DNA of 64,000 nt from a bacterium (lineage in GTDB: Bacteria > Patescibacteriota > Minisyncoccia > Phycocordibacterales > JAKAEA01), in contig JAJYGQ010000003.1 in assembly GCA_021785065.1 (NCBI GenBank), positions 2,470 through 66,469 of the forward strand. The letters run 5' to 3'. Positions within the stretch are counted from its first letter, which is position 1; every line of letters starts with the position of its first letter. Of this stretch, positions 2,555 to 64,000 are shown piece by piece. Under the pieces are notes generated by a model that was not told the DNA's origin, ran no database searches, and saw only the letters and a list, made by a program, of their open reading frames with translations. The translations under genes were made by a program, and so were the position numbers.

Positions 2555-3154
2555 GTGATAAATTTCATTATAACTTTCTTTTCGCTCAGTACGCTCGTCG
2601 TCGATATAGCCATTGTGCTTTTTGTGGTGTGGTTGGGAGTGTGGTATCTAGGGTGGCGTTGGAATAGGGGAATGCAAGAATCTTCTCAAGCAGTTGATGC
2701 TCGAGTAGTTGAGCCGTTTCGTCCACTTGTGCGCTGGGTGAGCATTAATGCTGTGGGAATTGGTTTAATCGTCAGTGTACTTGCTGTTGTAGGCAGCCTC
2801 TTTTTCTCAAATGTTGTTGGTTTTGCTCCTTGTGAGCTTTGTTGGTGGCAACGAATTTGTATCTATCCGCAAGTAGTTATTTTTGCGTTGGCATTTTTCT
2901 ATGAATGTCGCGGTAAAGCTTTAGGGCCGGTATTTTCTATAAGCGGCGTGCTCTCATTGATTGCATTTGCCATTGGTGCCGTCCAATACTATAGCGCAAC
3001 ATTTAATACGAGTATTTTAGCAGCGTGCAGTGCGACGGGAGTTTCGTGTACAAAAACTTATTTTGTACAATTTGGGTATATCACTATTCCTATGATGTCA
3101 GTAACGTTGGCGGCTATACTACTTAGTATTGTTGCTGCACGTCGCTTCTCGTAA
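2555..3154 (+). CDS. disulfide bond formation protein B (DsbB/BdbC-like)
   Basis: Polytopic membrane protein with CELCWWQRICIYP (CxxC-QR-Y motif of DsbB) and a second Cys pair. Confidence 0.65.
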   Translation: MINFIITFFSLSTLVVDIAIVLFVVWLGVWYLGWRWNRGMQESSQAVDARVVEPFRPLVRWVSINAVGIGLIVSVLAVVGSLFFSNVVGFAPCELCWWQRICIYPQVVIFALAFFYECRGKALGPVFSISGVLSLIAFAIGAVQYYSATFNTSILAACSATGVSCTKTYFVQFGYITIPMMSVTLAAILLSIVAARRFS

Positions 3155-4285: not shown

Positions 4286-5557
4286 ATGGACGAACAACAA
4301 AATATTCCCTCTCAAAATTTACCAACCAAACCACGTCAGCCTTTTTTCACACCTCGATTTTGGGCGATACTAGGTAGTAATGCCCTCGTAACGCTTATTA
4401 TTTTAGGCGCTATTGCCGGTATACTCTATGCTAAACGCGCCGCTATTGAAAACTATATTCATCCAGCTGCTACACCGCTTTCTCTAGCACAGGGCCATGA
4501 TCAAGCGGTGATAGCCGCTGTAAAAGAGGCTAATCCCGCGGTGGTTTCAATTATTATCACCAAGAATGTGCCGATAATGAAAGAGTATATACAAAATGAA
4601 CAAATTCCCAGTCCGTTTGGACTTTTTGGCAACGGCAGTTTCTCTATTCAGGTGCCGCAATACTATCAAGATGGCACACAACAACAACAAGTAGGTGGCG
4701 GATCAGGATTTTTTGTCTCATCTAATGGTCTTATCGTGACCAACGATCACGTGGTGTCCGATCCTAATGCCCAGTACACGGTCTATACCAATGATGGCCA
4801 GGAGCATACCGCTAAAGTAATAGCGCAAGACGCAACCGACGACATTGCATTTCTTAAAATTTCGGGTACTGGCTATCCGTATCTTACTTTCGATAATTCA
4901 AGCGCGTTGCAGCTTGGTCAGAGCGTGATCGCTATTGGTAATGCACTCGGTCAGTTTCGTAATACTGTTTCTGTGGGAGTTGTGTCCGGTCTCTCTCGTT
5001 CTATTGTGGCTGGTGATGTTGTTACTGGTGGCACGGAGTCATTGCCGCAAGTGATTCAAACTGATGCCGCTATCAACCCCGGTAATTCCGGCGGCCCACT
5101 TCTCGATCTTTTGGGTAAAGTGGTTGGTGTTAACGTCGCGGTAGCGCAGGGTTCGCAGGGTATTGGTTTTGCTCTTCCAGGAAATATGATCAAAGAAGCG
5201 GTGGCTTCGGTAGAAGCAAATGGTACGATAACCTTCCCGTTTCTTGGTGTGCGCTATATACCGATTACACCAACAGTGGCAAAAGATAAAAAACTTTCTG
5301 TAACCTATGGGGCCTTAATTGCCGCGGGAAGTGGTACGAGTCAACCGGCCGTTGTTGTTGGTTCGCCGGCGGCTAAAGCTGGTTTAGTAGCTGGTGATAT
5401 CATCTTAGATTTTAATGGTACGAAGTTGACTAATGACAATAATCTTACCGATCTCGTGCGGGCGCAAAAAGTTGGCGCTGTTGCGACCTTGACGGTGTTG
5501 CATAATGGCAAGCAAGAAACTGTTACAGTAACGCTCGGTAAAAAAGTAGAACACTAA
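4286..5557 (+). CDS. htrA: HtrA/DegP-family serine protease with PDZ domain
   Basis: Trypsin-like motifs (TNDHVV, GNSGGPL), C-terminal PDZ-like region, N-terminal TM. Confidence 0.85.
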   Translation: MDEQQNIPSQNLPTKPRQPFFTPRFWAILGSNALVTLIILGAIAGILYAKRAAIENYIHPAATPLSLAQGHDQAVIAAVKEANPAVVSIIITKNVPIMKEYIQNEQIPSPFGLFGNGSFSIQVPQYYQDGTQQQQVGGGSGFFVSSNGLIVTNDHVVSDPNAQYTVYTNDGQEHTAKVIAQDATDDIAFLKISGTGYPYLTFDNSSALQLGQSVIAIGNALGQFRNTVSVGVVSGLSRSIVAGDVVTGGTESLPQVIQTDAAINPGNSGGPLLDLLGKVVGVNVAVAQGSQGIGFALPGNMIKEAVASVEANGTITFPFLGVRYIPITPTVAKDKKLSVTYGALIAAGSGTSQPAVVVGSPAAKAGLVAGDIILDFNGTKLTNDNNLTDLVRAQKVGAVATLTVLHNGKQETVTVTLGKKVEH

Positions 5558-7563: not shown

Positions 7564-8109
7564 ATGTCAAAACAAACTATCGGTGAAGGCCGAAACTGGT
7601 ACGTTATTCACACCTATGCTGGTTATGAAAATGCCGTAGCTCGCAACCTACGTCAACGCATTGAATCGCTCAACATGCAGGATAAGATTTTTAACGTTAT
7701 CGTGCCGACGGAAAAGAAAATTAAAGTAAAAGCGGGGAAGCGTACTGAAGAAGAAGAAAAAATATATCCTGGTTACATTATGGTGGAAATGGTTGTTACT
7801 GACGATAGTTGGTATGTGGTGCGCAACACCCCGCGTGTAACCGGTTTCGTTGGCTCTGGCGTCTATCCGGTACCTATTCCTAAATCAGAAGTGGAATCGC
7901 TCTTTGCTCGTATGAATGCTGATACACCGAAGCACGCTATCAATCTCGACATTGATGACCATGTCACTATCGTCGACGGTCCCTTCAAAGAGCTTGAAGG
8001 CCGGGTTAATGAAGTTGATGAAGAACGCGGTAAAATAAAAGTGCTGGTAAATATGTTTGGTCGCGAAACACCCGTGGAATTAGACTTCTTGCAAGTAAAG
8101 AAAATTTAA
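7564..8109 (+). CDS. nusG: transcription termination/antitermination factor NusG
   Basis: NWYVIHTYAGYEN NGN domain plus C-terminal KOW. Confidence 0.9.
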   Translation: MSKQTIGEGRNWYVIHTYAGYENAVARNLRQRIESLNMQDKIFNVIVPTEKKIKVKAGKRTEEEEKIYPGYIMVEMVVTDDSWYVVRNTPRVTGFVGSGVYPVPIPKSEVESLFARMNADTPKHAINLDIDDHVTIVDGPFKELEGRVNEVDEERGKIKVLVNMFGRETPVELDFLQVKKI

Positions 8110-8135: not shown

Positions 8136-8558
8136 ATGGCTAAAAAAATCGTTAAACAATTAAAGCTTCAAATTCCAGGCGGTAAAGCTGTTCCTGGTCA
8201 ACAGCTCGGTCCGGCACTCGGCTCGGCGGGTATTAATATCGGTGAATTCGTAAAGCGTTTTAATGATGAAACGAAGGGACGTGTTGGCGAAACGGTGCCG
8301 ACAATCGTCTCTGTCTATGATGATCGCAGCTACTCACTCGCCTATAAAGTAGAACCCGCTTCAGCCCTTATCTTGAAAGCAATGGGCAAAGAAAAAGGTT
8401 CTGGTAAACCCAATACTGCTAAAATCGGCTCCATCACCAAAGCTCAGGCAAAAGAAATTGCTGAAAAGAAAATGCCTGATCTGAACGCCGCCTCAATCGA
8501 CGCCGCGGTACGTATCATCGAAGGCCAAGCCCGCTCTATGGGCGTGGAAGTAAAATAG
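8136..8558 (+). CDS. rplK: 50S ribosomal protein L11
   Basis: MAKKIVKQLKLQIPGGKAVPGQQLGPALG diagnostic of L11. Confidence 0.95.
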   Translation: MAKKIVKQLKLQIPGGKAVPGQQLGPALGSAGINIGEFVKRFNDETKGRVGETVPTIVSVYDDRSYSLAYKVEPASALILKAMGKEKGSGKPNTAKIGSITKAQAKEIAEKKMPDLNAASIDAAVRIIEGQARSMGVEVK

Positions 8559-43047: not shown

Positions 43048-43857
43048 AGCTCCTACCTGAATATGTTGATCAAAAAATTCCACTGCCGCTCGTAAAGGCC
43101 CTTAACAACGGCTTTTATGTCCGCGGCAACGCGGATTTTTTGTTTTCCGAACGATTGTTGCTTGAAAAATACATTCCGTCGCGGCACGACTTTCTAGCAT
43201 CGGCAACGATGTTAGAGGGGTCTTTATAGTGTCGTAGACGGGCAGGTAAAACAATACTGTTATTGAGAATCTTTGATTCCAGATAACAGAGTATATTAAT
43301 TGTGGTTCTTACATTTCCTGACGGGAATGTAAGGGCATATGGTGGATGCCTTGGCTTCAAAAGGCGATGAAGGACGTAGCATAACTGCGATAAGCTTCGG
43401 GGAGGTGTCGAGCAACCGTCAATCCGAAGATTTCCGAATGAGGAAACTCCCGCGTTTTAACGCGGACGTTTGCGCTTGACGCAAACGAGTATACCCAGGG
43501 AAGTAAAACATTTCAGTACCTGGAGGAATAGAGACCAATCGCGCAAGCGAATGGAATTTCCTAAGTAGCGGCGAGCGAAAAGGAATGAGCCCAAACCCGA
43601 TTCCACCTTTGCTGTTTGACGAGAGTCGAATAGCGGAGGTGCGATCGGGGGTTGTAAGGCGGTAACGTCACTTTTATAGTGAGAAGAGTTACAAAATGAG
43701 ATAGTAGCGGAACGTGCTGGAAAGCGCGGCCCCAGAGGGTAATGGCCCCGTACGCGAAACTAACTCATCTCTTTTGTTACCGTTCTTGAGTACCTCGAGA
43801 CACGAATGGCTCGGGGGAATCCAGCGGAACTAACCGCTAAGGCTAAATACTTTTGAA

Positions 43858-43897
<40 letters not shown>

Positions 43898-43967
43898 CAG
43901 CCCGGTGAGGGCGGTGAAATAGACCTGAAACCATATGCCTACAAGGAGTCAGAGCGGGGTACCACTT

Positions 43968-44385
43968 TGCGTGGTATGACGTTCTCAAAATAAAATTAAG
44001 AAAATTTATCTTTCATTCATCAAAATTTTATTGCTGAATATATACACTTTTATTGTGTACTATGTTTATGTAATACAAAGTTTGATGGATACAACCTTCT
44101 ACATAGGTTATACGAATTCAATTGATCGAAGATTGAAAGAACATAACTATAGTAAGGGTCGCTTTACCAGGAAACATATTCCCTGGAAACTTGTTTACTA
44201 TGAAGCATTTAACGACAAATTTCTAGCGAAACGTCGAGAAAAGATGCTCAAAGAAACCAGTAGGGCTTGGCAAGAATTACGAAAACGTCTCGGTGTTAAT
44301 TATCGAGAAAAAAAATCGCAAACAAATCCAGCCCAAGATATATTATTTTCTAAGTAAGTTTATAATTGAGGATGTCATAGTGCCT
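43968..44385 (+). mobile_element. about 415-nt AT-rich insertion in 23S helix-25 region (IVS-like or intron) carrying a GIY-YIG ORF
   Basis: Flanked by a perfect 13-bp helix GGGGTACCACTTT / AAAGTGGTACCCC; E. coli-equivalent position about 540-550, the classic IVS site. Confidence 0.6.
44031..44357 (+). CDS. GIY-YIG family nuclease (small stand-alone type) encoded inside the 23S insertion
   Basis: YVYVIQS...FYIGYTNSIDRRLKEHN plus downstream Arg/Glu catalytic residues. Confidence 0.75.
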   Translation: MLNIYTFIVYYVYVIQSLMDTTFYIGYTNSIDRRLKEHNYSKGRFTRKHIPWKLVYYEAFNDKFLAKRREKMLKETSRAWQELRKRLGVNYREKKSQTNPAQDILFSK

Positions 44386-46099
44386 AAAGTGGTACCCCGT
44401 CATGGCGTGCCTATTGAAGAATGAGCCAACGAGTTCTAGCATCCTGCGGGCTAAAGGCGCGAGCCTGGAGCCGCAGGGAAACCGAGTGTGAATAGCGCGT
44501 TTGTAGGATGCTAGAGACCCGAAGCCAGAGCGATCTACCCATGTGCAGGGTGAATGGTGCCGAAAGGCACCAGGAGGCCCGAACCGATAAGCCGTTCAAC
44601 ACTTTCGGATGACATGTGGGTCGAAGTGAAAAGCTAATCGAGCCTGGTAATAGCTGGTTCTCTCCGAAATAGCTTTTGGGTTAGCGTCGAATGTTCCCAG
44701 GGGGGGTAGAGCACTGGAAGGTCTCGACAGGGCGAAAGCTCGCGAGACCTATCAAACTCCGAATACTCTTGGTTAAAAGTTCGGCAGTTAGACTGTGGGG
44801 GCTAAGCTCCATTGGTCAAAAGGGAAACAGCCCAGATCTCCAGTTAAGGTCCCTAAATTTATGCTAAGTGCACTTAAGGTGGTAGAAATTCTCTAACAAT
44901 GAGGAGGTTGGCTTAGAAGCAGCCATCCTTTAAAGAAAGCGTAACAGCTCACTCATCGAGAGTTTCCGCGCCGAAGATAATCGGGGCTAAGCATAGTACC
45001 GAAACTGAGGACATTATTTTTCTTCGGAAAAATAGCGTGGTAGGAGAGTTTTCGTGTTGCGATGAAGGCGAAGGGGTGACCCACGCTGGAGCGTCACGAA
45101 GTAAGAATGTTGGCACAAGTAACCGCAATCAGTGTGAAAACCACTGACGCCGAAAGATCAAGGTTTCCTTGGCAATGACAATCAGCCAAGGGTTAGTCGG
45201 TCCTAAGGGGATGGCGAACGCCGCACCCGATGGATACATGGTTAATATTCCATGACTTTTGTGTTAGGCGATGAGAGGACGGAGTGCAGTATCCCGAGCA
45301 CCTTATTGGATTGGTGTTCGTGTCGTGAGAGTGGCGTGTAGGAAAATCCGCACGCGGCCGTAAGGCACATTCAAGCGAAGCGAAGCTGTTGAGGGCGACC
45401 TCGACCAATTCGGGAAAGCGCGCTTCCAAGAAAAGTCTCTAAGCTTACTAACACAGAAACCGTACCGCAAACCGACACAGGTGATCAGCTCGAGTAGAGC
45501 AAGGCGAACGAATGAGAAGTCCCCAAGGAACTCGGCAAAAAAGCGGCCGTAACTTCGGAATAAGGCCTGCCTATCGCAAGATAGGCCGCAGCTAAAGTAT
45601 GCTTGGCAACTGTTTACCAAAAACACAGCTCCCTGCGAACTCGAAAGAGGATGTATAGGGGGTGACACTTGACCAATGCCAGAAGGTCAACTATCGGCGG
45701 TGCGATTATATCAAGCTGACTGGTACAAGCCCTGGTGAATGTCGGTCGTAACTATAACGATCCTAAGGTAGCGAAATTCCTTGTCAGGTAAGTTCTGACG
45801 CGCACGAATAGTGTCATGACTGAGCAACTGTCTCGGGGACCCGTTCGGTGAAAATACAATACCGGTGAAGATGCCGGTTACCTGCAGCTAGACGAAAAGA
45901 CCCCGGAAGCTTTACTGCAACTTGGTATTGAGCGTACGTTGTTGATGCGTAGCATAGGTGGGAGAGGTTGAGGGCATGATCTCGGTTGTGCCGGACTCGT
46001 CAGTGAAATACCACTCTTCATAGGTGTACGTTCTAACCCGCGCGGCAAAAACGCGCGGAAACAGTACTAGGCGGGCAGTTTTAGTGGGGCGCTATCCTC

Positions 46100-47059
46100 A
46101 ACTTTGGGCGCCTCAGATTTGGTAAATGGTTCAAACGACCCTCCACCAAGTCAAATTATAAAATCAGGGGGACTTTAGTCCGTAAGGGCTATCGAAAAGT
46201 TAGCTATATGCTGGAACATCCGAGTATCTTTATGTACTCGCTCAAGTTTTTTGAGCAGTGAAAATCGTAAAGTGCGGACAATCAGCAGGAAATGCTCCTA
46301 TTCTAATATTTTTATTCAGCATAGAAGCAAATCCTCAGAGACTACACGCTAACCTCCGCGAAAGCGGATGATGATATAGTCCGATCTTTGTGGCGACACA
46401 AAGCTTACTACATATAGTAAGACCATTAATGAACACTAAGGAAATTCGGGAGTACAAAAACACTCTCAAACTTACTGACATTCAAAAATCTATTCTCGTC
46501 GGAACATTGTTGGGCGATGGACATTTAGAGACGCAAGATAACGGTAAAACGTATCGTCTCAAAATTGAACATCAGTTAGCCCAGCAAGACTACACGGAAT
46601 GGCTTCACAGCCACTTCAAAGAGTGGGTTAGAAATGGAATGTATAGAAAAGTAAAATCACAAGGTAAAGAATATGTCGGATTTACCACATATTCGCACGG
46701 CGCCTTCAGATTTTACGCTCAGCAATTTTACACTGAGAAAAAGAAACATATTCCCAGAATGATCAGTAAATTGCTAAATCCATTAGTTGTTGCGATCTGG
46801 TTTATGGATGATGGTTCGTGGAAATCAGAAAAACACGAAACCTTCATAATACATACGCTCGGATTCACAAAAGAAGATCTTACGTTGATACAAGATTCGT
46901 TTAGAAAATTGTTCAATATAGAAACTTCACTTCATCGACAAAAAGAAAGATATTGGAGGTTGTATATACGATCAAGTTCCGCAAAAGAATTTGAAAAACT
47001 AATACAACCTTACACATCACTCGTTGATTCTATGAAGAAAAAGATGGGTAACAATAAGC
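46100..47059 (+). mobile_element. group I intron in 23S rRNA (domain V, before CTAAAGAGTAACGGAGG) encoding a LAGLIDADG endonuclease
   Basis: Exon sequence resumes exactly at CTAAAGAGTAACGGAGGAG; intron contains AGAGACTACACG (P7/J8-7-like); ORF stop codon lies in the downstream exon. Confidence 0.7.
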
Positions 47060-47070
47060 CTAAAGAGTAA
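46390..47070 (+). CDS. double-motif LAGLIDADG homing endonuclease
   Basis: ILVGTLLGDGHL and VVAIWFMDDGS motifs about 100 aa apart. Confidence 0.85.
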   Translation: MATQSLLHIVRPLMNTKEIREYKNTLKLTDIQKSILVGTLLGDGHLETQDNGKTYRLKIEHQLAQQDYTEWLHSHFKEWVRNGMYRKVKSQGKEYVGFTTYSHGAFRFYAQQFYTEKKKHIPRMISKLLNPLVVAIWFMDDGSWKSEKHETFIIHTLGFTKEDLTLIQDSFRKLFNIETSLHRQKERYWRLYIRSSSAKEFEKLIQPYTSLVDSMKKKMGNNKPKE

Positions 47071-47392
47071 CGGAGGAGTCTATTAAGGTCGGCTAGGCGC
47101 GAATGGAAACCGTGCCGATAGGGCATTGCCACAAGCCGGCTTGACTGCAAGAGGTAAGTCTCGAGCAGGTGCGAAAGCAGAGCAAAGTGAACCGACCATC
47201 CGCATTAGATGCGGTGGAAGATTATCTGACAAAAGCTACTCCGGGGATAACAGGCTGGTACTGCCTAAGCGTCCATAGCGACGGCAGTGTTCGGCACCTC
47301 GATGTCGGCTCAAGATATCCTCCTGGTGGAGAAGCTAGGAAGGGTTTGGCTGTTCGCCAATTAAAATCTTACGCGAGCTGGGTTCAGACCGT

Positions 47393-47714
47393 TCAGCGCT
47401 CAAATCGGAATTTTGGAATTTTCTGAAATTTTTGACATTGAGCATTGAACCGTCTGAATCCCGAGGTTTAGTTTCAGTTCCACAACTATCTGTAACTTGT
47501 TCACGGCGGTCCCGTCGAGTAATCGGCGGTGACACAGTCAACTTATATCGGTGAAGCCCATATCGTGGGAACACGAGTGCTGGTGACACCTAGGGAATTT
47601 TGTAAATTTTTACAAATGCCCGTAGAGACTACACGTTGACTATCTTTCTCGGAGTTTATAGACCGAGTGAGATAAAAATATAGTCCATTGCACGGAGTGA
47701 TCCGTGGAAACAAG
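47393..47714 (+). mobile_element. ORF-less group I intron in 23S at the L2593-equivalent site (between GACCGT and CGTGAGACAG)
   Basis: Exon context GCGAGCTGGGTTCAGACCGT | ... | CGTGAGACAGGTTGGTC matches the I-CreI/L2593 homing site; contains AGAGACTACACG core-like element. Confidence 0.65.
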
Positions 47715-47856
47715 CGTGAGACAGGTTGGTCTCCTATCTGCTGCAGGCGTTGATTCTTGAAGAGATTTGACTCTAGTACGAGAGGACCGAGTTGAACTGA
47801 CCTCTGGTGTGGCAGCTCTGGCGCCAGCTGGACCGCTGCGTAGCTATGTCGGGAAC

Positions 47857-47889
<33 letters not shown>

Positions 47890-48072
47890 GACTCTAAGAT
47901 TAGGAATCGTTAAGACCCGTGGGAGATGACCACGTTGATAGGCACCAGGTGTACGCACAGTAATGTGTTGAGCCGAGGTGTACTAATTGGTCGATCTTGT
48001 CAGGAAATGTACGAAGCACAAAATATACTCTGTTACCTGGAATTACAAAGAAATTAAAACATTGAATGTTGT

Positions 48073-48186
48073 GTTCTGGTGGTTCGTCGCGGAGGTCACA
48101 CCTGATCTCATTCCGAACTCAGAAGTTAAGCTCCGTTGAGGCGATGGTACCGTCTATGGATGGGAGAGTAGCTCGCCGCCGGAACA
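48073..48186 (+). rRNA. rrf: 5S ribosomal RNA
   Basis: CCTGATCTCATTCCGAACTCAGAAGTTAAGC and GGGAGAGTAGCTCGCCGCC blocks. Confidence 0.9.
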
Positions 48187-54679: not shown

Positions 54680-54957
54680 GTCTCCTACTCTCTATAGGGG
54701 AGTTGGTTCTTTGAAACTTGAAATACTTGAGATGGGTGGAGCCGGTAAAAACGGCTGCATCCAGCAAGTACCCAAATTATTCTTACAAAAATAATTCCAA
54801 ATAAAATAAGTCAGTTTTATTCGAGCAATCAAACTCTACGAATCTAAATTATTGTTAGGCATAAGAACATATTAAAGCGATAGTTTTCACTAGCGTCTTT
54901 TATTTTGTTCCGTTTGACTCGTCAAGAATCTTATTCGATTCTTCGCGAGGATAATTT

Positions 54958-56555
<1,598 letters not shown>

Positions 56556-56783
56556 TTCAAGGTGAATTTCGTCAATCATCACTTGATGATTAGACTGACG
56601 GAGTCGATATTGTGGATCTCGTACGAGTCCATAATGGAACGCGAATTCCTAAAGCGCTGACCGCAGGGAAAGACCGCAAATAAACGGAACAAAATAAAGG
56701 ACGTCGCTTCTTTATTCGGAAAAATCGCCTTAATAGGGCGGTTTTTCTTTTATTAGGTCATATTTTTAGGGTACAGAAAAGTA

Positions 56784-57458: not shown

Positions 57459-57532
57459 GGGCGTATAGCTCAGGTGGTTAGAGCGCGTCACTGATAATGA
57501 CGAGGTCCCACGTTCGAGTCGTGGTACGCCCA
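57459..57532 (+). tRNA. tRNA-Ile (anticodon GAT)
   Basis: GGGCGTATAGCTCAGGTGGTTAGAGCGCGTCACTGATAATGACGAGGTCCCACGTTCGAGTCGTGGTACGCCCA; cloverleaf with anticodon loop cTGATAa. Confidence 0.9.
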
Positions 57533-58987
57533 CATTCCTCGGAAATCGATGTTTTTAGGCGCAGTGGCGAGTACTTGATAGACGCTTTTAAATTGAGCTG
57601 AAGCCACCGTTTGGTTTTTGATAGAAGCGTTCGAGAGTACTTTTCCGAGCATATTTCGCTTTTCTTCCTCGGTGTAGTTCAAATACGTTTCCGCGGCCTT
57701 GTTGCCCTCTAAAAGAACTTCTTTAATCTGTTCGAGAGTAAAAGGCGACACACCACCCCTAGCTTGGATTTCGGCGATTTGCTTCTTGATAATAACCCGC
57801 TTGTTTTCAATCTCCTGAAGCTTGATTTTGTAGACTTCTTCCCGGATTAATTGAGAACTGTAGCCATCGGCCAGAGTTAATTCTTTCTTGAGCAGATCGT
57901 CCAACTCCGCAGTCAGAGTTCCCGTTGAATTTTCAACATACGTGATTTTGCCTTTATTTTCTTCCTTATACATATCATAGGAGAATTCGATCAATTCTTC
58001 TCTGAATTTTAATTTGAGAAAAAGGTTGGATAGAAGAGCGTGAACATCATCGGATTTCAGATACTTTTTGTGTTCTTCGCAGTTACCCCTGCCATTGGTG
58101 CAGTAGTAATATTGGTGGCCCCGTTGGGTGTCCACGGTTAACGCGCAGCCGCAGGAGGCGCATTTCAGGAATCCCTGAGCGGCGTAGAAGTACTTTTTCG
58201 GGCGAGGGTGATTCCGGCCGGCGAGAACGTCTTGCACGGTGTCAAACAGTTTTTGAGATATGATCGGTGTATGTTTGCCGGGGTAAATTTTGCCGTCACG
58301 AGGCATGAGGCCGGTGTAGAAGCGGTTGAGGAGCAAGCGCTGTAACTGACCTTTTTCGATTTTGTTGCCGGTTTTGGTTCGTAAACCTTCTTTGTAGAGA
58401 ATGTCGCTGGTTTGCTTCAGCGTGTGAGTGCCTGTGGCGTAGAGCTCAAATGCGCGGGTGATAAACGGAGCATACTTTTTGTCCACGACGACGGTTTTGG
58501 TAGTCTTGTCGTTAAGATATCCCAGAGGCGCTTGATTGGGCCATTCACCACGTTCCAGTTTTGCTCGGTTGCCTCGTTTGACGTTGACGCTAAGGTCACG
58601 AATGTATTGATTGGCCATGGCCTGCTCAATGCTCATGACGATGACGTTGTCGTTAGGGTAGTAGCTTTTATCAAACGTCCGAATGCACTTAATCTGATTG
58701 TTTTGGAGGAGCCATTGAATCTGACCGCCATCCACTGGATTTCTCGTTAAACGGTCAATTTTCCAGCAGAGAATGGCATCGGCTTTGCCGGCGGTGATCA
58801 TTTTGATCATGTCATTGAAGATGGGCCGGCCGGGCTCTTTAGCCGATTTGCTTTCCTTGAGAATGGCAATTACGTCTAAGCCATTAGCTTTGACGATTTT
58901 CTGGAGCTCGTCTTCTTGCGATGCCAGCGACAAAACCTGTTTATCTTCAGTATCAGTGGATTTTCTACAATAGAGAATAAATTTCAT
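57488..58987 (-). CDS. large serine recombinase (integrase), C-terminus encoded on the complement of tRNA-Ile
   Basis: Catalytic YCRKSTDTEDKQ...SLASQ...DRLTRN resolvase domain, recombinase domain, zinc ribbon CASCGC...YYYC; last 15 codons and TGA stop overlap the tRNA anticodon and T arms. Confidence 0.85.
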   Translation of the reverse strand: MKFILYCRKSTDTEDKQVLSLASQEDELQKIVKANGLDVIAILKESKSAKEPGRPIFNDMIKMITAGKADAILCWKIDRLTRNPVDGGQIQWLLQNNQIKCIRTFDKSYYPNDNVIVMSIEQAMANQYIRDLSVNVKRGNRAKLERGEWPNQAPLGYLNDKTTKTVVVDKKYAPFITRAFELYATGTHTLKQTSDILYKEGLRTKTGNKIEKGQLQRLLLNRFYTGLMPRDGKIYPGKHTPIISQKLFDTVQDVLAGRNHPRPKKYFYAAQGFLKCASCGCALTVDTQRGHQYYYCTNGRGNCEEHKKYLKSDDVHALLSNLFLKLKFREELIEFSYDMYKEENKGKITYVENSTGTLTAELDDLLKKELTLADGYSSQLIREEVYKIKLQEIENKRVIIKKQIAEIQARGGVSPFTLEQIKEVLLEGNKAAETYLNYTEEEKRNMLGKVLSNASIKNQTVASAQFKSVYQVLATAPKNIDFRGMWAYHDSNVGPRHYQ

Positions 58988-59023: not shown

Positions 59024-59782
59024 TCAAATTTTGTAAATTCTGTGTCGTCCTGTGCCCAGGCGCATAGTGTCGTAGGATTTATCTATTTCCGGCTCACCGG
59101 CACCCAATTCTTGAAGCGCAGCATCTACAGCGGTGGCACTGATACCACCAACTATTTCCGGTCGTAGCAGATTTCTTGAGCAGGTATACGATTTTTGACC
59201 CATTAAGCGGTAATCGGTAAAAGATTTAGTCATATACTTAGCTAGATAGGAAGATAATCTTGGGCCACCATCACTTTGGATTACGTCAATGAAGCCGTGT
59301 CCCCAGAGTCCTTTAACCAATCGGGTATGTCGCTCTGTTTTAGCGAGGGTCTCGGGAAGACCCCAGAGCATAGCATGGAAATGAATGGCTCCACGGTCTT
59401 GAAATTCTGGGACTGCGATGTACCGAAATTGTTTGCCGAATTGATGGCGGAGAGTCTGGATAAAAGCATGGAAATCTTTGTATCCATGACTGAGAGACGT
59501 TTGGTTGTCTTGGTAGGTAAGAGTAAGCAGTAGAGGGTGGTCAACTCCTCCAAGGTTAGCAGAAACAAGCCGTCTAAAAGCCATTGCAGCGCGCCGTGCG
59601 TTATCTTGGCGTTTGCCCTCGTATTCGTGTCGCTGTAATGGATTTTCTCCACCAGGAGCCACACCCACGCCGCCATTTTTAACCGAAAAGCGTCTCTGTC
59701 TTGGGGGTCTATCTGGAAGGTCTCGTGAGTATTCATATGTTTCAATTGTGTGAGCGTATTTAATAATTTTGTTGTATCCCAT
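59024..59782 (-). CDS. rep: rolling-circle replication initiator, Rep_1 (pC194/pUB110-like) HUH endonuclease family
   Basis: Motif I LLLTLTY, motif II HFHAMLW (HUH), motif III YLAKYMTK (catalytic Tyr). Confidence 0.75.
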   Translation of the reverse strand: MGYNKIIKYAHTIETYEYSRDLPDRPPRQRRFSVKNGGVGVAPGGENPLQRHEYEGKRQDNARRAAMAFRRLVSANLGGVDHPLLLTLTYQDNQTSLSHGYKDFHAFIQTLRHQFGKQFRYIAVPEFQDRGAIHFHAMLWGLPETLAKTERHTRLVKGLWGHGFIDVIQSDGGPRLSSYLAKYMTKSFTDYRLMGQKSYTCSRNLLRPEIVGGISATAVDAALQELGAGEPEIDKSYDTMRLGTGRHRIYKI

Positions 59783-59814
59783 TTCTTTTTCTCTAGTTAC
59801 TTATGTGAGGTACT

Positions 59815-59844
59815 TATCAAGTCAGACAGCGGGGTCGTCCCCGC
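59815..59844 (-). promoter_or_regulatory. candidate double-strand origin: CTTGATA nick heptamer (minus strand) adjacent to GC-rich hairpins, 33 nt upstream of rep
   Basis: Minus-strand CTTGATA at 59815..59821 equals the pC194-family nick core; hairpin GCGGGG-tcgt-CCCCGC at 59829..59844 and a second GC palindrome to about 59870. Confidence 0.45.
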
Positions 59845-60013
59845 CGCCACTAAAGTGGCGCGGCGGCGACTGCCCGCTCTCGGCAATAACAGCAATTAAT
59901 CCAGCCAATGATTCTAAATATTCTTGGGCAGTCTCATCCGAAAGCTCCAAGCCGTAATACTTTTTGAAGTAGGCTTTGCACCTCTCTATGAGCAGTTGAT
60001 TTACAGTCCGCAT
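59822..60013 (-). CDS. small hypothetical protein (63 aa) upstream of rep; 3' end overlaps the GC hairpins
   Basis: ORF only; could instead be non-coding origin/leader. Confidence 0.25.
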   Translation of the reverse strand: MRTVNQLLIERCKAYFKKYYGLELSDETAQEYLESLAGLIAVIAESGQSPPRHFSGGGDDPAV

Positions 60014-60107: not shown

Positions 60108-61052
60108 ATGCCCACTATTAAGCGGGAGTATGGAAAACTCAAAGCAAAACCAACCTTTTTCAAGAAAGGAACTGTCGTCTATTCAAATTCCGGCCACGCA
60201 TTACACCTTTCCAATGGCTACTATCGTTGCAGTCTAAATTGCAGAAAAGAGCTTGGCAGCAAAGAAAGCCAAGTTGAACAGGAGCGTCTGCACCGAGATT
60301 TTTCTCGAATAGCTAAACGTTTCGCGATTGGTGAGGACGATGTCAACGCTGTCTTGCGCCAATTGATGCAGAGGTATTTTGTGAATACGTTGTTTGATAT
60401 TGACGAAAAGACCGATAGCAAAGGAAGAATAATTAACGCCAATATCGTCAAAATGAAGGCTGATATTAAACGGGGTGAATTTGTCAAAAGAGACGTGACT
60501 GATTCTTTTGATCGATTCATGGAAATCAGTAAAGACGAATATCCATTTATCATGTTCTGTTACGCTTTTGGTGTTATTGGATCATTGTCGGCATTGCATG
60601 GGGAGCGTGAGATTGGGCAAGTCTTGGCCGCGATTACCAAACACGTCTATATATCAGATATTGGAATTGTAGAGAAAATTGAATTTGAACCATGGGGCTG
60701 GTACATCTTGAATTTCATGGAAAAACAGGTGCCGAACTATTTATGGAGTCTTAAAAAACATGGGGTAGATATCACCAATGACCACACCGATCAATTTTTG
60801 AAAAAAGATTTTTCGGCGGCAATCGCGTATTTTGAATCCGAAGGTTTTGAAGAAGCACTCCACAATGATATGACCCAAGTTCTCTACAAACTTTTTTCGT
60901 TGATGAGAGATTCAATACGAGTACTTTTAAAAGGCGATACAGCATCAATGCAAAAAGCCTACACGGATTTGGTTGAACGATTTAAGAAAGATCCAGTATT
61001 CAAAATGGCAATGATGTTGCCGGCATTAGGAAGTGGAAAGATCAAACTTTAA
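60108..61052 (+). CDS. hypothetical protein (314 aa) of the element
   Basis: Clean ORF, no recognisable motif. Confidence 0.45.
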   Translation: MPTIKREYGKLKAKPTFFKKGTVVYSNSGHALHLSNGYYRCSLNCRKELGSKESQVEQERLHRDFSRIAKRFAIGEDDVNAVLRQLMQRYFVNTLFDIDEKTDSKGRIINANIVKMKADIKRGEFVKRDVTDSFDRFMEISKDEYPFIMFCYAFGVIGSLSALHGEREIGQVLAAITKHVYISDIGIVEKIEFEPWGWYILNFMEKQVPNYLWSLKKHGVDITNDHTDQFLKKDFSAAIAYFESEGFEEALHNDMTQVLYKLFSLMRDSIRVLLKGDTASMQKAYTDLVERFKKDPVFKMAMMLPALGSGKIKL

Positions 61053-61053
61053 C

Positions 61054-61429
61054 AGAAATACCGTTCCGGCCGCTTAAGCCGGGCAGGTTCTCACACCGCC
61101 CGTGGGGTTTGCGGCTTCTTATTTTCGGGCACAATGGCGCGTCCTTGGCGCAGCATCGTAGTGAAGCACAAACGCTTACACCATAGAGCTTTCTAGCGCT
61201 ATGGAGATTTCCTCTCTTTTGGGAAAGGAAATAGTAGAAGCCAGAAAGTCCTATGGGCTGGCTTCACTACCATACTGCGCCGGTCGCGACAAACATTAAA
61301 GGAAATAGTAGAAGCCAGAAAGTCCTATGGGCTGGCTTCACTACCATACTGCGCCGGTCGCGACAAACATTAGTGGCTTGAAGCCCGAAACCTCCACGGG
61401 CTTACGAGAGCGGCCGGAACCGTATTTCT
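61054..61429. repeat. 376-bp structured non-coding block: 20-bp terminal inverted repeats (1 mismatch) enclosing a 74-bp direct repeat x2, each unit with an 8-bp-stem hairpin
   Basis: Left arm GAAATACCGTTCCGGCCGC (61055..61073) versus right arm GCGGCCGGAACCGTATTTC (61410..61428); repeat units 61225..61298 and 61299..61372; hairpin GAAGCCAG...CTGGCTTC. Confidence 0.8.
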
Positions 61430-61466
61430 TGAGAGAATATTTTGTGATATTCTATTAAAAATAAAC

Positions 61467-62009
61467 ATGGATTTTTATATCATTTTTGCCGGTATTATTG
61501 AACAGGGTTTTGCCAATAAACTTGTTGTAGCAATAAATAGGGCAGCCACTCTTAAAGTAAGAAAAATATTTATTTTTTTCTCATCTTTAGGCGGGAACAT
61601 TCAAGAAGGATTCACTATCGCGTCAGTTATCCAAAATTCCACAATTCCAATATCAATCCACGCTAATAACAATATTGATTCAATCGCTAATGTAATATAC
61701 TTATCAGCAAAAGAAAGGACCGCGGAATCTTACGCAAAATTTTATCTTCATGGCGCAACAGGTCCTCAAGTTGCATACGATGAAAAAGGTTTGAAAGAAC
61801 AACTTTTGGCAGTTAAAACAGAAAATACACGCATAGCACAGTTTGTATCTGAAAATTCGAATCTAAATTTCAAAAAAGTCCAAGCCATGATGCGGGCAGG
61901 AACAACGATGACTACCCAACAGGCGTTGCAGTATGGGATAGTTAAAGAAATCATCCACAAAGAAGTACCGATTGACGCGGTCAAGGAAGAGATTTTAATT
62001 GTTAATTAA
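61467..62009 (+). CDS. ClpP-like (S14 family) serine protease, short form (phage prohead-protease-like)
   Basis: ClpP-like blocks IFFSSLGGNIQEGFTIASVI (compare INSPGGVITAGMSIYDTM), Ser in DSIAN, His in YLHGATG. Confidence 0.55.
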   Translation: MDFYIIFAGIIEQGFANKLVVAINRAATLKVRKIFIFFSSLGGNIQEGFTIASVIQNSTIPISIHANNNIDSIANVIYLSAKERTAESYAKFYLHGATGPQVAYDEKGLKEQLLAVKTENTRIAQFVSENSNLNFKKVQAMMRAGTTMTTQQALQYGIVKEIIHKEVPIDAVKEEILIVN

Positions 62010-62011
62010 TT

Positions 62012-62245
62012 ATGAAAAATACAACAATGGAATATGTAAAAAAAATAGTTGAGGAATCATTAAAAAATATGGGTTGTACTGACGTGGCATTCCCTGACCC
62101 TAAAGAAGATCTTGTTATAGCCGTTTTTAACTGCAAAGAAATTACAAGTTTTGTTACTGAAATACCAGGATGGACACATTCGGGTATTCATTTAGATCCA
62201 ACTCACGAACATCAATACAAAATTGACTTTAAAAGATTAAGCTAA
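62012..62245 (+). CDS. hypothetical protein (77 aa)
   Basis: ORF immediately after the ClpP-like gene stop (ATG 3 nt downstream); no motif. Confidence 0.35.
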   Translation: MKNTTMEYVKKIVEESLKNMGCTDVAFPDPKEDLVIAVFNCKEITSFVTEIPGWTHSGIHLDPTHEHQYKIDFKRLS

Positions 62246-62337
62246 TATTGTTTAGGTATATTATTCGCAAAATGGGAATAATGAAAATGACGCAACAAAT
62301 TAAAAATTAAATCAGATTAATCTTCTAAAAACTTTTT

Positions 62338-62766
62338 ATGGAAAACGATCGAGAAATTATATATGGTATGGAAGGTAAAAAAGTGAAGGGATTGCCTCTG
62401 GATGACTTGGAAAAATTAATGCGCGAATGGCAGAAGAAACTTCTCATGGACAACTGGAAGCTCGATTTAAAGATTGTCGATTTTAAAAGGAAAAATAATT
62501 ACCGTCAAAGTGGCGATTTCATAGCCGATCCTGACAAGAAAAACGCTTCTATCTTGATGACTTGGGATCCGTGGCGCGGCGATGAAGAGTACACGCTTGT
62601 TCACGAAATGTTGCACGTCTTGGTATATGACTATGATAAATACAGCGAGGGTTTAATTCTTGGTCATTATAAAAAATTCGAAGGTGAACACGATGTGTAC
62701 ATGGATAAATTAGAAAATCTAGTTCATCATTTGACCAGGATGTTGCTCGGGCGGTCAGACAGGTAG
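62338..62766 (+). CDS. putative zinc metallopeptidase (HExxH; ImmA/IrrE-like size)
   Basis: TLVHEMLHVL HExxH motif in a 142-aa protein. Confidence 0.45.
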   Translation: MENDREIIYGMEGKKVKGLPLDDLEKLMREWQKKLLMDNWKLDLKIVDFKRKNNYRQSGDFIADPDKKNASILMTWDPWRGDEEYTLVHEMLHVLVYDYDKYSEGLILGHYKKFEGEHDVYMDKLENLVHHLTRMLLGRSDR

Positions 62767-62867
62767 TTTCTTAATTTTGTTAATCAAAAATAAAAATAAC
62801 AAATAAAAAAGCCCAGGATTCATGACGAGTCCGGGGCTTTGGCGCTGATAGCTTATACCTACCGGCA

Positions 62868-62948
62868 TTAGCTACCTCGACAGCATGGCGAGAACGCTGA
62901 TCGGGGCGTGCTGGCTTTTGTTGCCTGCGCCGTTTTGATGCGCTTCAT
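62868..62948 (-). CDS. candidate 26-aa peptide MKRIKTAQATKASTPRSAFSPCCRGS (possible RiPP precursor) downstream of the rSAM/SPASM gene
   Basis: Perfect SD AAAGGAGG 5 nt before ATG on the minus strand; C-terminal Cys-Cys; below the ORF-track length cutoff. Confidence 0.3.
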   Translation of the reverse strand: MKRIKTAQATKASTPRSAFSPCCRGS

Positions 62949-63008
62949 GGCTACCTCCTTTCTACGCTGATAAGCGCAAATCAATTGTAACGAACTAATG
63001 AGACTATG

Positions 63009-64000
63009 TCAATGGCTGCTAGCCGAACGAATGTTTTCTTCGTTTAAGACGAGAACCTCCAAAAATTCCGGCAAGTCGTGTTTCCAATCCAAGCAATAGT
63101 CGCAACCAGGCTTGTGATAGCGCTTCATGTTGCATCCGCCCATACATATTGGGAGCATGGGGCAGTCACGACATTCCGAGAATTGGAGAGGGTCTTTTTT
63201 GACCCACAAATCATTCGGCACAGTGTCGAGGTGGATTGTCCCATCGCTGCCCAAACGGCCAACTGACCCAGTCTCAAACATCTGACCGCAACGATACAGA
63301 TTGCCGTTAAGGTCGGTGATGAAGCGATTGGGATATTCTCCAACACAAAACCCAAGTGCTCTCATCTTTTCAGTCGGAGGAAGAACTACCCAACCGTCTT
63401 TCGCCGCCCTCTTGTAGATTGCTAACGCTCTGTGAGCAAAATCATATCCTGACAGGCAGTGTGATTCGCAAGGATTAGCTGGCGAAGACACTACTGCCTG
63501 AACATTGACCTCGATCTTGTTCTTGAGACCATGCTCAGCAAGTAGTGTATAGAGTTCTGGAATCTGATCCACATTTCTGGTTGTCGTGTTTACCCGGATT
63601 GAGACCTTGAGTCCCGAGGCCACGGCGTTCTTGATGTTTTTTAATATGGTCCAGAAGGTCGGGCCGCCTCCTTTAAGTGGCCGGCATGCGTCATGAATAT
63701 CTGGAGGGCCATCAAGGGTGATGGTGAGAACAGATAAGGGTGTTGTAGCAAGGTAGGTCACCACCTCTTCACTCAGGTGATAACCATTAGTAGTGATGGA
63801 ATGACAATATTCCACCTCCGACTGTTTTGCTAAGATCGTGAATTTGTCATTCATGGCGCACAGAGCGTCGAATGAAAGAAGCGGCTCACCACCAAACCAG
63901 TCCACCTCGACCCTTTTTGCCTTCTCGCAAATCTTGCGAAACATTGCCAGAACCTTATCCGACTCTTGCGGCGATAAATACTCGTTTCTGTGCTCCTCAA
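63009..64000 (-). CDS. radical SAM enzyme with C-terminal SPASM domain (peptide-modifying or anSME-like), N-terminus beyond window
   Basis: WFGGEPLL radical-SAM block; SPASM Cys cluster CRDCPMLPICMGGC plus CDYC; reading frame stays open upstream of the annotated Met to the window edge. Confidence 0.8.
   Translation of the reverse strand, partial: EEHRNEYLSPQESDKVLAMFRKICEKAKRVEVDWFGGEPLLSFDALCAMNDKFTILAKQSEVEYCHSITTNGYHLSEEVVTYLATTPLSVLTITLDGPPDIHDACRPLKGGGPTFWTILKNIKNAVASGLKVSIRVNTTTRNVDQIPELYTLLAEHGLKNKIEVNVQAVVSSPANPCESHCLSGYDFAHRALAIYKRAAKDGWVVLPPTEKMRALGFCVGEYPNRFITDLNGNLYRCGQMFETGSVGRLGSDGTIHLDTVPNDLWVKKDPLQFSECRDCPMLPICMGGCNMKRYHKPGCDYCLDWKHDLPEFLEVLVLNEENIRSASSH

Follow-up and report, generated by a model that had tools for sequence, protein, structure and literature searches.

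Does the heptamer CTTGATA, which lies directly upstream of a replication gene in a bacterial chromosome, mark an origin of replication, and if so, an origin of which kind? The question is raised by a stretch of 64,000 nucleotides (nt) from a chromosomal contig of a Patescibacteriota bacterium (assembly GCA_021785065.1, contig JAJYGQ010000003.1, positions 2,470 to 66,469), referred to here as the window. The origin region is read on the minus strand, which also encodes the replication protein Rep. A previous reading of the letters alone (the sequence-only reading) had taken the heptamer as the nick site of a Rep_1-type origin, as in plasmids of the pC194/pUB110 family. According to our analysis, the block GACTTGATAAGTACCTCACATAAG is very probably the double-strand origin for an HUH Rep of the phiX174 type with two tyrosines, whose gene starts 32 nt further downstream. 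It belongs to a known kind of origin, the phiX174-like one, and is carried by a small mobile element integrated at a tRNA gene. The motif with its conservation, position and strand is shown, and so are the motifs of Rep (HUH, Y-x3-Y) together with its HUH fold, the mosaic breakpoints among related elements and the integration context.

The heptamer was read directly from the sequence at 59821-59815 of the minus strand. Between its last base and the rep start codon (ATG, 59782) lie 32 nt, or 33 if counted base to base, which is the distance that the sequence-only reading had given. The order on the minus strand is GCGGGG-ACGA-CCCCGC-TGTCTGA-CTTGATA-AGTACCTCACATAAGTAACTAGAGAAAAAGAA-ATG, and a longer reading gives GAGAGCGGGCAGTCGCCGCCGCGCCAC-TTTA-GTGGCGGCGGGGACGACCCCGCTGTC-TGA-CTTGATA-AGTACCTCACATAAGTAACTAGAGAAAAAGAA-ATGGGATAC. 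Based on an anchored alignment of 35 loci and its information content, an extended origin block GACTTGATA-AGTA-CCTCACATAAG was delimited at 59823-59800 (minus strand). It consists of the nick region, a spacer and a downstream block that is linked to Rep. By analogy to phiX174, the nick is predicted between G59818 and A59817 of the minus strand, within the shorter stretch GACTTGATAAGTACC; the corresponding single-stranded oligonucleotide sequence of the origin is TGTCTGACTTGATAAGTACCTCAC. The bare heptamer is frequent in the window, with 19 copies compared to 7.75 +/- 2.6 expected, and none out of 100 shuffles reaches 19. Hence a single copy proves nothing, and it is conservation that counts. 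The extended pattern GACTTGMTAN5CTMAC has one zero-mismatch match in the window. A weak origin-like repeat at 61687-61706 (repeat search, family D10) lacks ACTTG.

For the analysis of conservation we collected 165 matches to Rep, nearly all from metagenome bins of Patescibacteria (Candidate Phyla Radiation, CPR). An alignment of 33 Rep homologues (A1) was built and 148 loci were fetched from genome and viral collections. Of 40 distinct loci in the close clade, 35 have ACTTG[AC]T on the rep strand in the 100 nt that precede rep, where the background frequency of the pattern in these loci would give 0.56. The remaining five loci exhibit the one-base variant ACTCGAT, a degenerate ATCTCGCT (L033) or the motif farther upstream. 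The anchored consensus of the 35 loci is tGACTTG[c/a]TA-n3-acCTaACatAA, in which GACTTG and the T that follows the variable base show practically no variation. The motif is thus kept among homologous elements, as the sequence-only reading requires, though not the heptamer to the letter: its base 5, located 3’ of the presumed nick, is a C in 22 loci and an A in 13.

The motif extends to more distant relatives. Among 95 such Rep loci (Bacillota, IMG/VR contigs), 43 show ACTTGAT between -250 and +30 of rep (2.0 expected), typically in the form TTAACTTGATTATAG...CACACAT. The Geobacillus plasmid pGTG5 (1540 bp) has a single copy of ACTTGATTATAG, i.e. ACTTGAT(TATAG), 45 nt upstream of rep. In the Brevibacillus plasmid pHT926 (1786 bp), ACTTGATTATAG is located 86 nt upstream of rep, two weaker matches to the core motif are present elsewhere, and a strong GC hairpin precedes the motif on the 5’ side. 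The Reps of both plasmids are 31-32% identical to the window Rep and hit the same Pfam set, PF23343 together with weak RepSA and Helitron_like_N matches. In contrast to the window element, both are free Bacillota plasmids of 1.5-1.8 kb and possess neither an integrase nor orf63, the small open reading frame (ORF) upstream of the window origin. Nothing specific on the origins of pGTG5 and pHT926 was found in the literature.

A Rep relative is also encoded on five contigs of identical size (L066, L067, L069, L070 and L071; 1796 bp). L066 is circular, with a terminal overlap of 95 nt, and shows TTAACTTGATTATAGCGATTAATAAG upstream of rep. Contigs of 1796 bp occur in assemblies of three unrelated genera, Streptomyces, Herminiimonas and Microbacterium, all of them ‘NPDC’ strains, which looks like a common contaminant or a small replicon spread in laboratories.

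We compared the block with two well-described origins. The 30-bp origin of phiX174 is written CAACTTG^ATATTAATAACAC, and its rep_origin is annotated at nt 4306, which is the A in CCCCCAACTTG^ATATTAATAACACTATAGACCAC. On the rep strand of pC194 the double-strand origin reads TCTTGATAATAAGG, with CTTGATA at 999-993; the fuller stretch TTCTTTCTTATCTTGATAATAAGGGTAACTATTGCC is located ~190 nt upstream of rep. The core ACTTGATA is common to the window block, phiX174 and pC194, and the motif resides on the rep-coding strand in all three. Moreover, the CAC of the window block stands at the same offset as in phiX174 (window GACTTGATA-AGTAC-CTCAC, phiX174 AACTTGATA-TTAAT-AACAC). One Patescibacteria locus, L043, reads ACTTGATAATAATAACAC and is identical to phiX174 at 17 of 18 positions.

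The window origin therefore resembles that of phiX174 in its whole layout, i.e. in the ACTTG^AT core, the spacer and the position of the CAC-containing block. It differs in that the phiX174 origin resides inside gene A while the window origin is upstream of rep, in the variable +1 base of the window family, and in the GC hairpin 5’ of the nick. The window element moreover has no capsid genes and is integrated. With pC194/pUB110 plasmids the likeness consists of the CTTGATA nick core upstream of rep on the rep strand, which bears out the kinship to pC194-family origins at the level of the core; pC194 however is a free plasmid without integrase. Given its presence in 35 of 40 loci and the core shared with phiX174 and pC194, the motif is of the origin type and has the right place and orientation for Rep, as had been proposed.

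Mosaics in an alignment of homologous elements (A3) add an independent mark of a site of breakage and rejoining. L002 and L010 are identical at 93 of 99 positions in the ~100 nt upstream and at 24 of 40 positions after GACTTG. The reverse is seen for L010 and L011 (32/99 upstream, 40/40 after GACTTG), whose Reps are 90% identical at the protein level. For L011 and L009 the values are 74/79 and 20/40, respectively. In these mosaics the variable base after the G and the downstream block go with the rep module. The position of the joints indicates a break at, or directly after, GACTTG, and Rep-mediated or nick-stimulated recombination has, in our reading, probably left them behind. An exchange of modules with the nick of the double-strand origin as its boundary has been reported for qac plasmids of the pC194 family (PMC5037232).

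Upstream of the motif, the sequence-only reading had described a hairpin and a second GC palindrome. Both are present (GCGGGG/CCCCGC at 59844-59839 / 59834-59829; GCCAC-TTTA-GTGGC at 59859-59846 with extended arms). They share four bases (GCGG), hence both cannot form in full. Folded as single-stranded DNA, the region prefers one imperfect GC-rich stem-loop of 23 bp (59825..59881, minus strand; TTTA loop at 59851-59854) with a free energy (dG) of -23.3 kcal/mol and a z-score of -4.25. The two-hairpin form reaches -19.6 kcal/mol, and the small hairpin has a pair probability of only 0.003 in the ensemble. The two palindromes are thus better read as a single stem-loop, which ends 2 nt before ACTTG and 3 nt before CTTGATA.

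Using folding of each sequence with shuffles, a strong hairpin, defined by >= 10 bp and dG <= -15 kcal/mol, was found 5’ of ACTTG in 30 of 39 close loci; its z-score is mostly between -4 and -6. The gap to the motif is 1-23 nt, and in 28 loci it does not exceed 12 nt. Of the 30 hairpins, 19 have a TTTA loop, although at least ten classes of stem with unrelated sequences can be told apart. The hairpin accompanies orf63 and is also present in several distant integrative loci as well as in pHT926; it is not found in pGTG5 and other small plasmids. MAFFT combined with RNAalifold predicted only 4 pairs for 32 upstream regions, the stems being too divergent in length and sequence for a consistent alignment. 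An Rfam scan of the origin region gave no match. Furthermore, hairpin class and Rep phylogeny are uncoupled: Reps of 90% identity are found beside unrelated hairpins, while Reps of 58-68% identity share one hairpin. The hairpin is hence not the determinant of Rep specificity. The key sequence of phiX174 is a specificity element located 3’ of the nick. By this analogy, the block that travels with rep on the 3’ side of the nick is the more likely seat of specificity. As to the hairpin itself, it may be a minimal signal similar to a single-strand origin or a structural aid to melting or termination, with about equal likelihood. Single-strand origins are usually located directly upstream of the nick, at least according to Khan as quoted in PMC5037232.

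The hairpin gives rise to another explanation, namely that the nick takes place in the TTTA loop as in origins of the pT181, pMV158 and circovirus type, the ACTTG block being a binding site for Rep. The recurrence of TTTA on unrelated stems agrees with it, and nick sites in loops are common in other rolling-circle families (PMC5703833, PMC5037232). However, ACTTGAT is kept in 9 of 39 loci and in several related plasmids without a strong hairpin. Nicking in the loop is likewise at odds with the uncoupling of hairpin class from Rep phylogeny and with the mosaic breakpoints, which are at GACTTG and not in the loop. Since also the homologous phiX174 protein A cuts within CTTG^ATA, we consider a nick in the loop improbable.

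The same low probability applies to the assumption that TTG[A/C]TA...TAACATAA is only the promoter or operator of rep, i.e. a -35-like box with a site for Rep autoregulation, the true nick being elsewhere or nonexistent. TTGATA does resemble the -35 consensus TTGACA, the block is located 26-64 nt upstream of the ATG in most loci, and origins and rep promoters of rolling-circle plasmids often overlap (PMC5703833, on RepU). A sigma-70 scan nevertheless finds no promoter there, and the distance of only 6-9 nt from TTGNTA to the downstream conserved block is too short for a -35/-10 pair. In phiX174 gene A the same sequence is an origin and not a promoter. Mosaic breakpoints at the motif moreover indicate DNA breakage rather than transcription.

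Which family the origin belongs to depends on Rep. The protein, an HUH endonuclease of 252 amino acids (aa) from an ORF call at 59024..59782 (minus strand), carries the motifs H134-F-H136 and Y179-LAK-Y183. Both histidines and both tyrosines are invariant across A1. The fold satisfies the HUH criterion with a beta-sheet, the HUH motif on the central strand and the catalytic tyrosine on a helix. Pfam assigns residues 84-187 to REP_ORF2-G2P (PF23343) with 79.5 bits at a gathering threshold of 27.8 bits. Sub-threshold matches (E <= 0.01) concern PF20199 and PF14214 (RepSA, Helitron_like_N), and the PHROGs label is "rolling circle DNA replication initiation". In the Pfam scan neither Rep_1 (PF01446; E <= 0.01) nor Phage_GPA (PF05840) matches the window Rep. 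A PDB sequence search with the Rep profile gave no match.

PF23343 is a core model of 99 positions. pC194 Rep and phiX174 protein A likewise exceed its cut-off, with 29.4 and 33.5 bits, respectively, so assignment to PF23343 does not point to a different nick sequence. Beyond this core the two proteins diverge, pC194 Rep matching Rep_1 with 198.7 bits and phiX174 protein A matching Phage_GPA. The A1 profile weakly matches a YxxVPE[FY]..G..HFHA segment of protein A (E 6e-4, probability 28%); hhalign of A1 against pC194 Rep aligned nothing (probability 1%). Motif 3 reads Y179-LAK-Y183-MTK in the window, Y343-VAK-Y347-VNK in phiX174 and E210-MAK-Y214-SGK in pC194. Protein A, an initiator of superfamily I of the HUH proteins, is thus alike in having HFH preceded by VPE[FY]...G and a motif 3 of the type Y-x-A-K-Y-x-x-K. 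It is different in length (513 aa compared to 252 aa) and in belonging to Phage_GPA. Two tyrosines are the phiX174 arrangement (PMC5714925, PMC3218068). For pC194 it has been proposed that Glu210 promotes hydrolysis at termination and that Tyr214 attacks at initiation (PMC5703833). Accordingly, pC194 Rep shares the PF23343 HUH core with the window Rep, and its E-x3-Y instead of Y-x3-Y implies a different termination chemistry. Taken together, Y-x3-Y, the absent Rep_1 match and the profile comparisons characterize the window Rep, as judged from its sequence, as a two-tyrosine initiator that is nearer to phiX174 protein A than to pC194 Rep and stands outside Rep_1.

This bears on the original family assignment, in which the block is literally a plasmid origin of the pC194/pUB110 (Rep_1) family and the element a member of that family. 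The CTTGATA core upstream of rep in rep sense is the same as in pC194, and PF23343 does accept pC194 Rep, if narrowly. The window element is however chromosomally integrated and equipped with an integrase, and its motif 3 is not the family-defining E-x3-Y (PMC5703833). The failed Rep_1 profile together with the difference in motif 3 rules out membership in the family, and we regard this explanation as highly improbable. A chance heptamer beside GC-rich palindromes that merely terminate the upstream ORF, as could be argued from the 19 copies in the window and from the hairpin at the 3’ end of orf63, is effectively ruled out by the conservation statistics (35 of 40 loci vs 0.56 expected), the more so as a T-run is absent 3’ of the hairpin and the terminator scan was negative.

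The phiX174-like origin is part of a larger module. The contig is chromosomal, as the window carries 23S, 5S and 16S rRNA genes. On the 5’ side of the origin, orf63 (63 aa; 59822..60013, minus strand) is a conserved small ORF whose variable 3’ end encodes the hairpin and whose TGA stop codon (59824-59822) abuts CTTGATA. Using tblastn it is matched in 26 loci, in each case by the N-terminal ~45 residues only. Directly downstream of rep, a large serine recombinase (integrase) of 499 aa is encoded at 57488..58987 on the minus strand (Pfam Resolvase, Recombinase and Zn_ribbon_recom), which is syntenic with rep in ~40 loci. The final 15 codons of the recombinase gene run antisense to the 3’ half of tRNA-Ile(GAT) (57459..57533, plus strand; ARAGORN, Rfam 68.7 bits). 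Because of this overlap, tRNA-Ile marks one integration junction. Divergently from orf63, the accessory gene orf314 of the conserved module is located at 60108..61052 (plus strand); tblastn matches it in 11 loci with 24-33% identity, and it has no Pfam, PHROG or NCBIfam match.

The window element is therefore integrated at tRNA-Ile via the serine recombinase and is not a free plasmid. The sequence-only reading had called it a functional rolling-circle replicon. This term fits only an excised form, none of which was observed, and with the element being integrated, replication is a potential rather than shown. In substance that reading was right and is thus partly supported; it erred on the family, on the structure, which is one hairpin uncoupled from Rep, and on the status of the element.

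The order orf63 - origin - rep - recombinase - tRNA recurs in ~30 loci, the tRNA being specific for Gln, Leu, Tyr, Ile, Ser, Trp or Asn. The recurrence suggests that Patescibacteria harbour a family of large serine integrases directed at tRNA genes (loci L003-L080 and the window). In two loci, L011 and L012, exact or near-exact direct repeats of 172-174 nt flank the elements beside tRNA-Leu/Tyr, with a second copy of the tRNA 3’ end. In L012 the repeats are exact, measure 174 nt (2834-3007 / 8322-8495) and lie at a distance of 5488 bp; they contain 19 nt from the 3’ end of tRNA-Leu. L011 shows three repeat copies (240-411 / 2693-2864 / 7919-8090), suggesting tandem insertions or remnants.

Related combinations are known from other bacteria. 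Actinomycete integrative and conjugative elements (AICEs) of the pSAM2 type carry an integrase, a nick site like that of pC194 and a rolling-circle Rep with kinship to phiX174 protein A (PMC3218068). The phiRSM inoviruses use a serine recombinase and the 3’ end of tRNA-Ser as attP (PMC4471427), and both inoviruses in CPR and serine recombinases in inoviruses have been reported by Roux et al. (PMC6813254). The window element resembles them in having a rolling-circle rep gene beside a site-specific recombinase and the 3’ part of a tRNA as target. Its Rep also shows the weak RepSA matches mentioned above and 33% identity to the Rep of inovirus Rs551. It differs by its host and by its recombinase, which is of the large serine type with its own 3’ end overlapping the tRNA. 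No Zot/pI gene is present among the window ORFs scanned (56.9 to 63.9 kb) or in the gene calls of L151, which covers this locus in another assembly and extends it by 5.8 kb; by that criterion the element is not an inovirus prophage. Nothing specific on such an element type in Patescibacteria was found in the literature.

Three free circular IMG/VR contigs of 4.9-5.2 kb (L082, L083 and L085) encode Reps with 45-52% identity to the window Rep. L082 and L083, the two for which ORFs were listed, additionally show a Zot-like ATPase (Pfam-confirmed in L082), a secreted protein of 490-535 aa, small membrane proteins and ACT[T/C]GATA. For free circles of this size that encode Zot and further inovirus-like genes, the Rep identity amounts to 45-47%. 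Judged by their sequences, these three contigs are inovirus-like genomes related to the integrated elements.

Further features are located in the vicinity. Beside the rep module, 61467-63944 (L151 5452-8316) encodes a ClpP-like protease (180 aa), two small ORFs, an HExxH-containing ORF of 142 aa and a radical SAM protein, which has 440 aa in the full contig L151; these genes may belong to the element as cargo or to the host. Between orf314 and the Clp-protease-like gene lies a non-coding stretch of 377 nt (61054-61430), in which 74 nt are duplicated exactly in tandem (61224-61297 / 61298-61371) and long inverted repeats occur. As single-stranded DNA it folds with -96 kcal/mol (z -10.7). It has no Rfam match and no similarity among the 148 related loci, and may be a single-strand origin or a non-coding RNA. 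The rRNA genes of the window are unlinked and their order is unusual, 23S-5S coming first (43319-48184) and 16S ~7 kb downstream (54956-56562). The 23S gene spans 4686 nt compared to 2925 nt of the model and contains a group I intron at 46133-46403. Insertions in 23S are known in CPR genomes.

Several points weigh against the block being a phiX174-type origin in an element capable of replication. The base 3’ of the presumed nick is variable, whereas it is an A in phiX174 and pC194. Inovirus Rs551 does not have such a motif upstream of its related rep. The mosaic breakpoints do not resolve the exact bond because the GACTTG hexamer is invariant. The far junction of the element was not located: a repeat search of 56.5-64 kb and a short-word blastn on L151 revealed a second tRNA-Ile 3’ copy neither in the window nor in 10 kb of upstream sequence from L151. 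Neither was a circular contig with rep and integrase of a close relative found, the Logan contigs P0010, P0018, P0029 and P0032 having no terminal overlaps. The element could be a decaying remnant, though rep, integrase and origin are all intact. Finally, what we infer comprises nicking and the exact bond that is cut, the function of the hairpin, and excision and replication.

Even so, the phiX174-type origin remains the reading we favour, and the following course of events is conceivable. After excision of the element as a supercoiled circle, Rep would bind the origin. Specificity would probably be provided by the Rep-linked block 3’ of the nick, in the manner of the phiX174 key sequence. Rep would most likely cut the rep-sense strand after the G of ACTTG, between 59818 and 59817, whereby Tyr179 or Tyr183 would be joined to the 5’ end and the 3’-OH would prime leading-strand synthesis. 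The second tyrosine may allow the regenerated origin to be cut and religated, as happens in phiX174. The GC hairpin 5’ of the nick would be an accessory element independent of Rep. In the window the replicon would be dormant, having been integrated at tRNA-Ile by the large serine recombinase.

Seen jointly, the loci might represent a widespread and hitherto undescribed family of integrative rolling-circle elements in Patescibacteria, ~5.5 kb in size and targeted to tRNA genes. They would be composed of orf63, hairpin, phiX-like origin, two-tyrosine Rep and a large serine integrase whose 3’ end rebuilds the tRNA, and would be related to inovirus-like circles from the same environments. Breakage by Rep at the nick would shuffle orf63 and the hairpin against the rep-integrase module, and the hairpin with its TTTA loop would be a new, minimal lagging-strand origin read by the host. 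This joint reading is tentative, and we think it rather doubtful in its entirety.

To our knowledge, very few autonomous replicons or genetic tools exist for Patescibacteria. With its initiator and a serine integrase specific for a tRNA, the compact origin is a candidate for a vector backbone in these bacteria, and the module also offers a handle on gene flow among them. More generally, the phiX174-type origin sequence (ACTTG^AT, spacer, CAC block) spans plasmids, inovirus-like genomes and integrated elements in distant phyla, and it is at the site of this origin that natural mosaics break.

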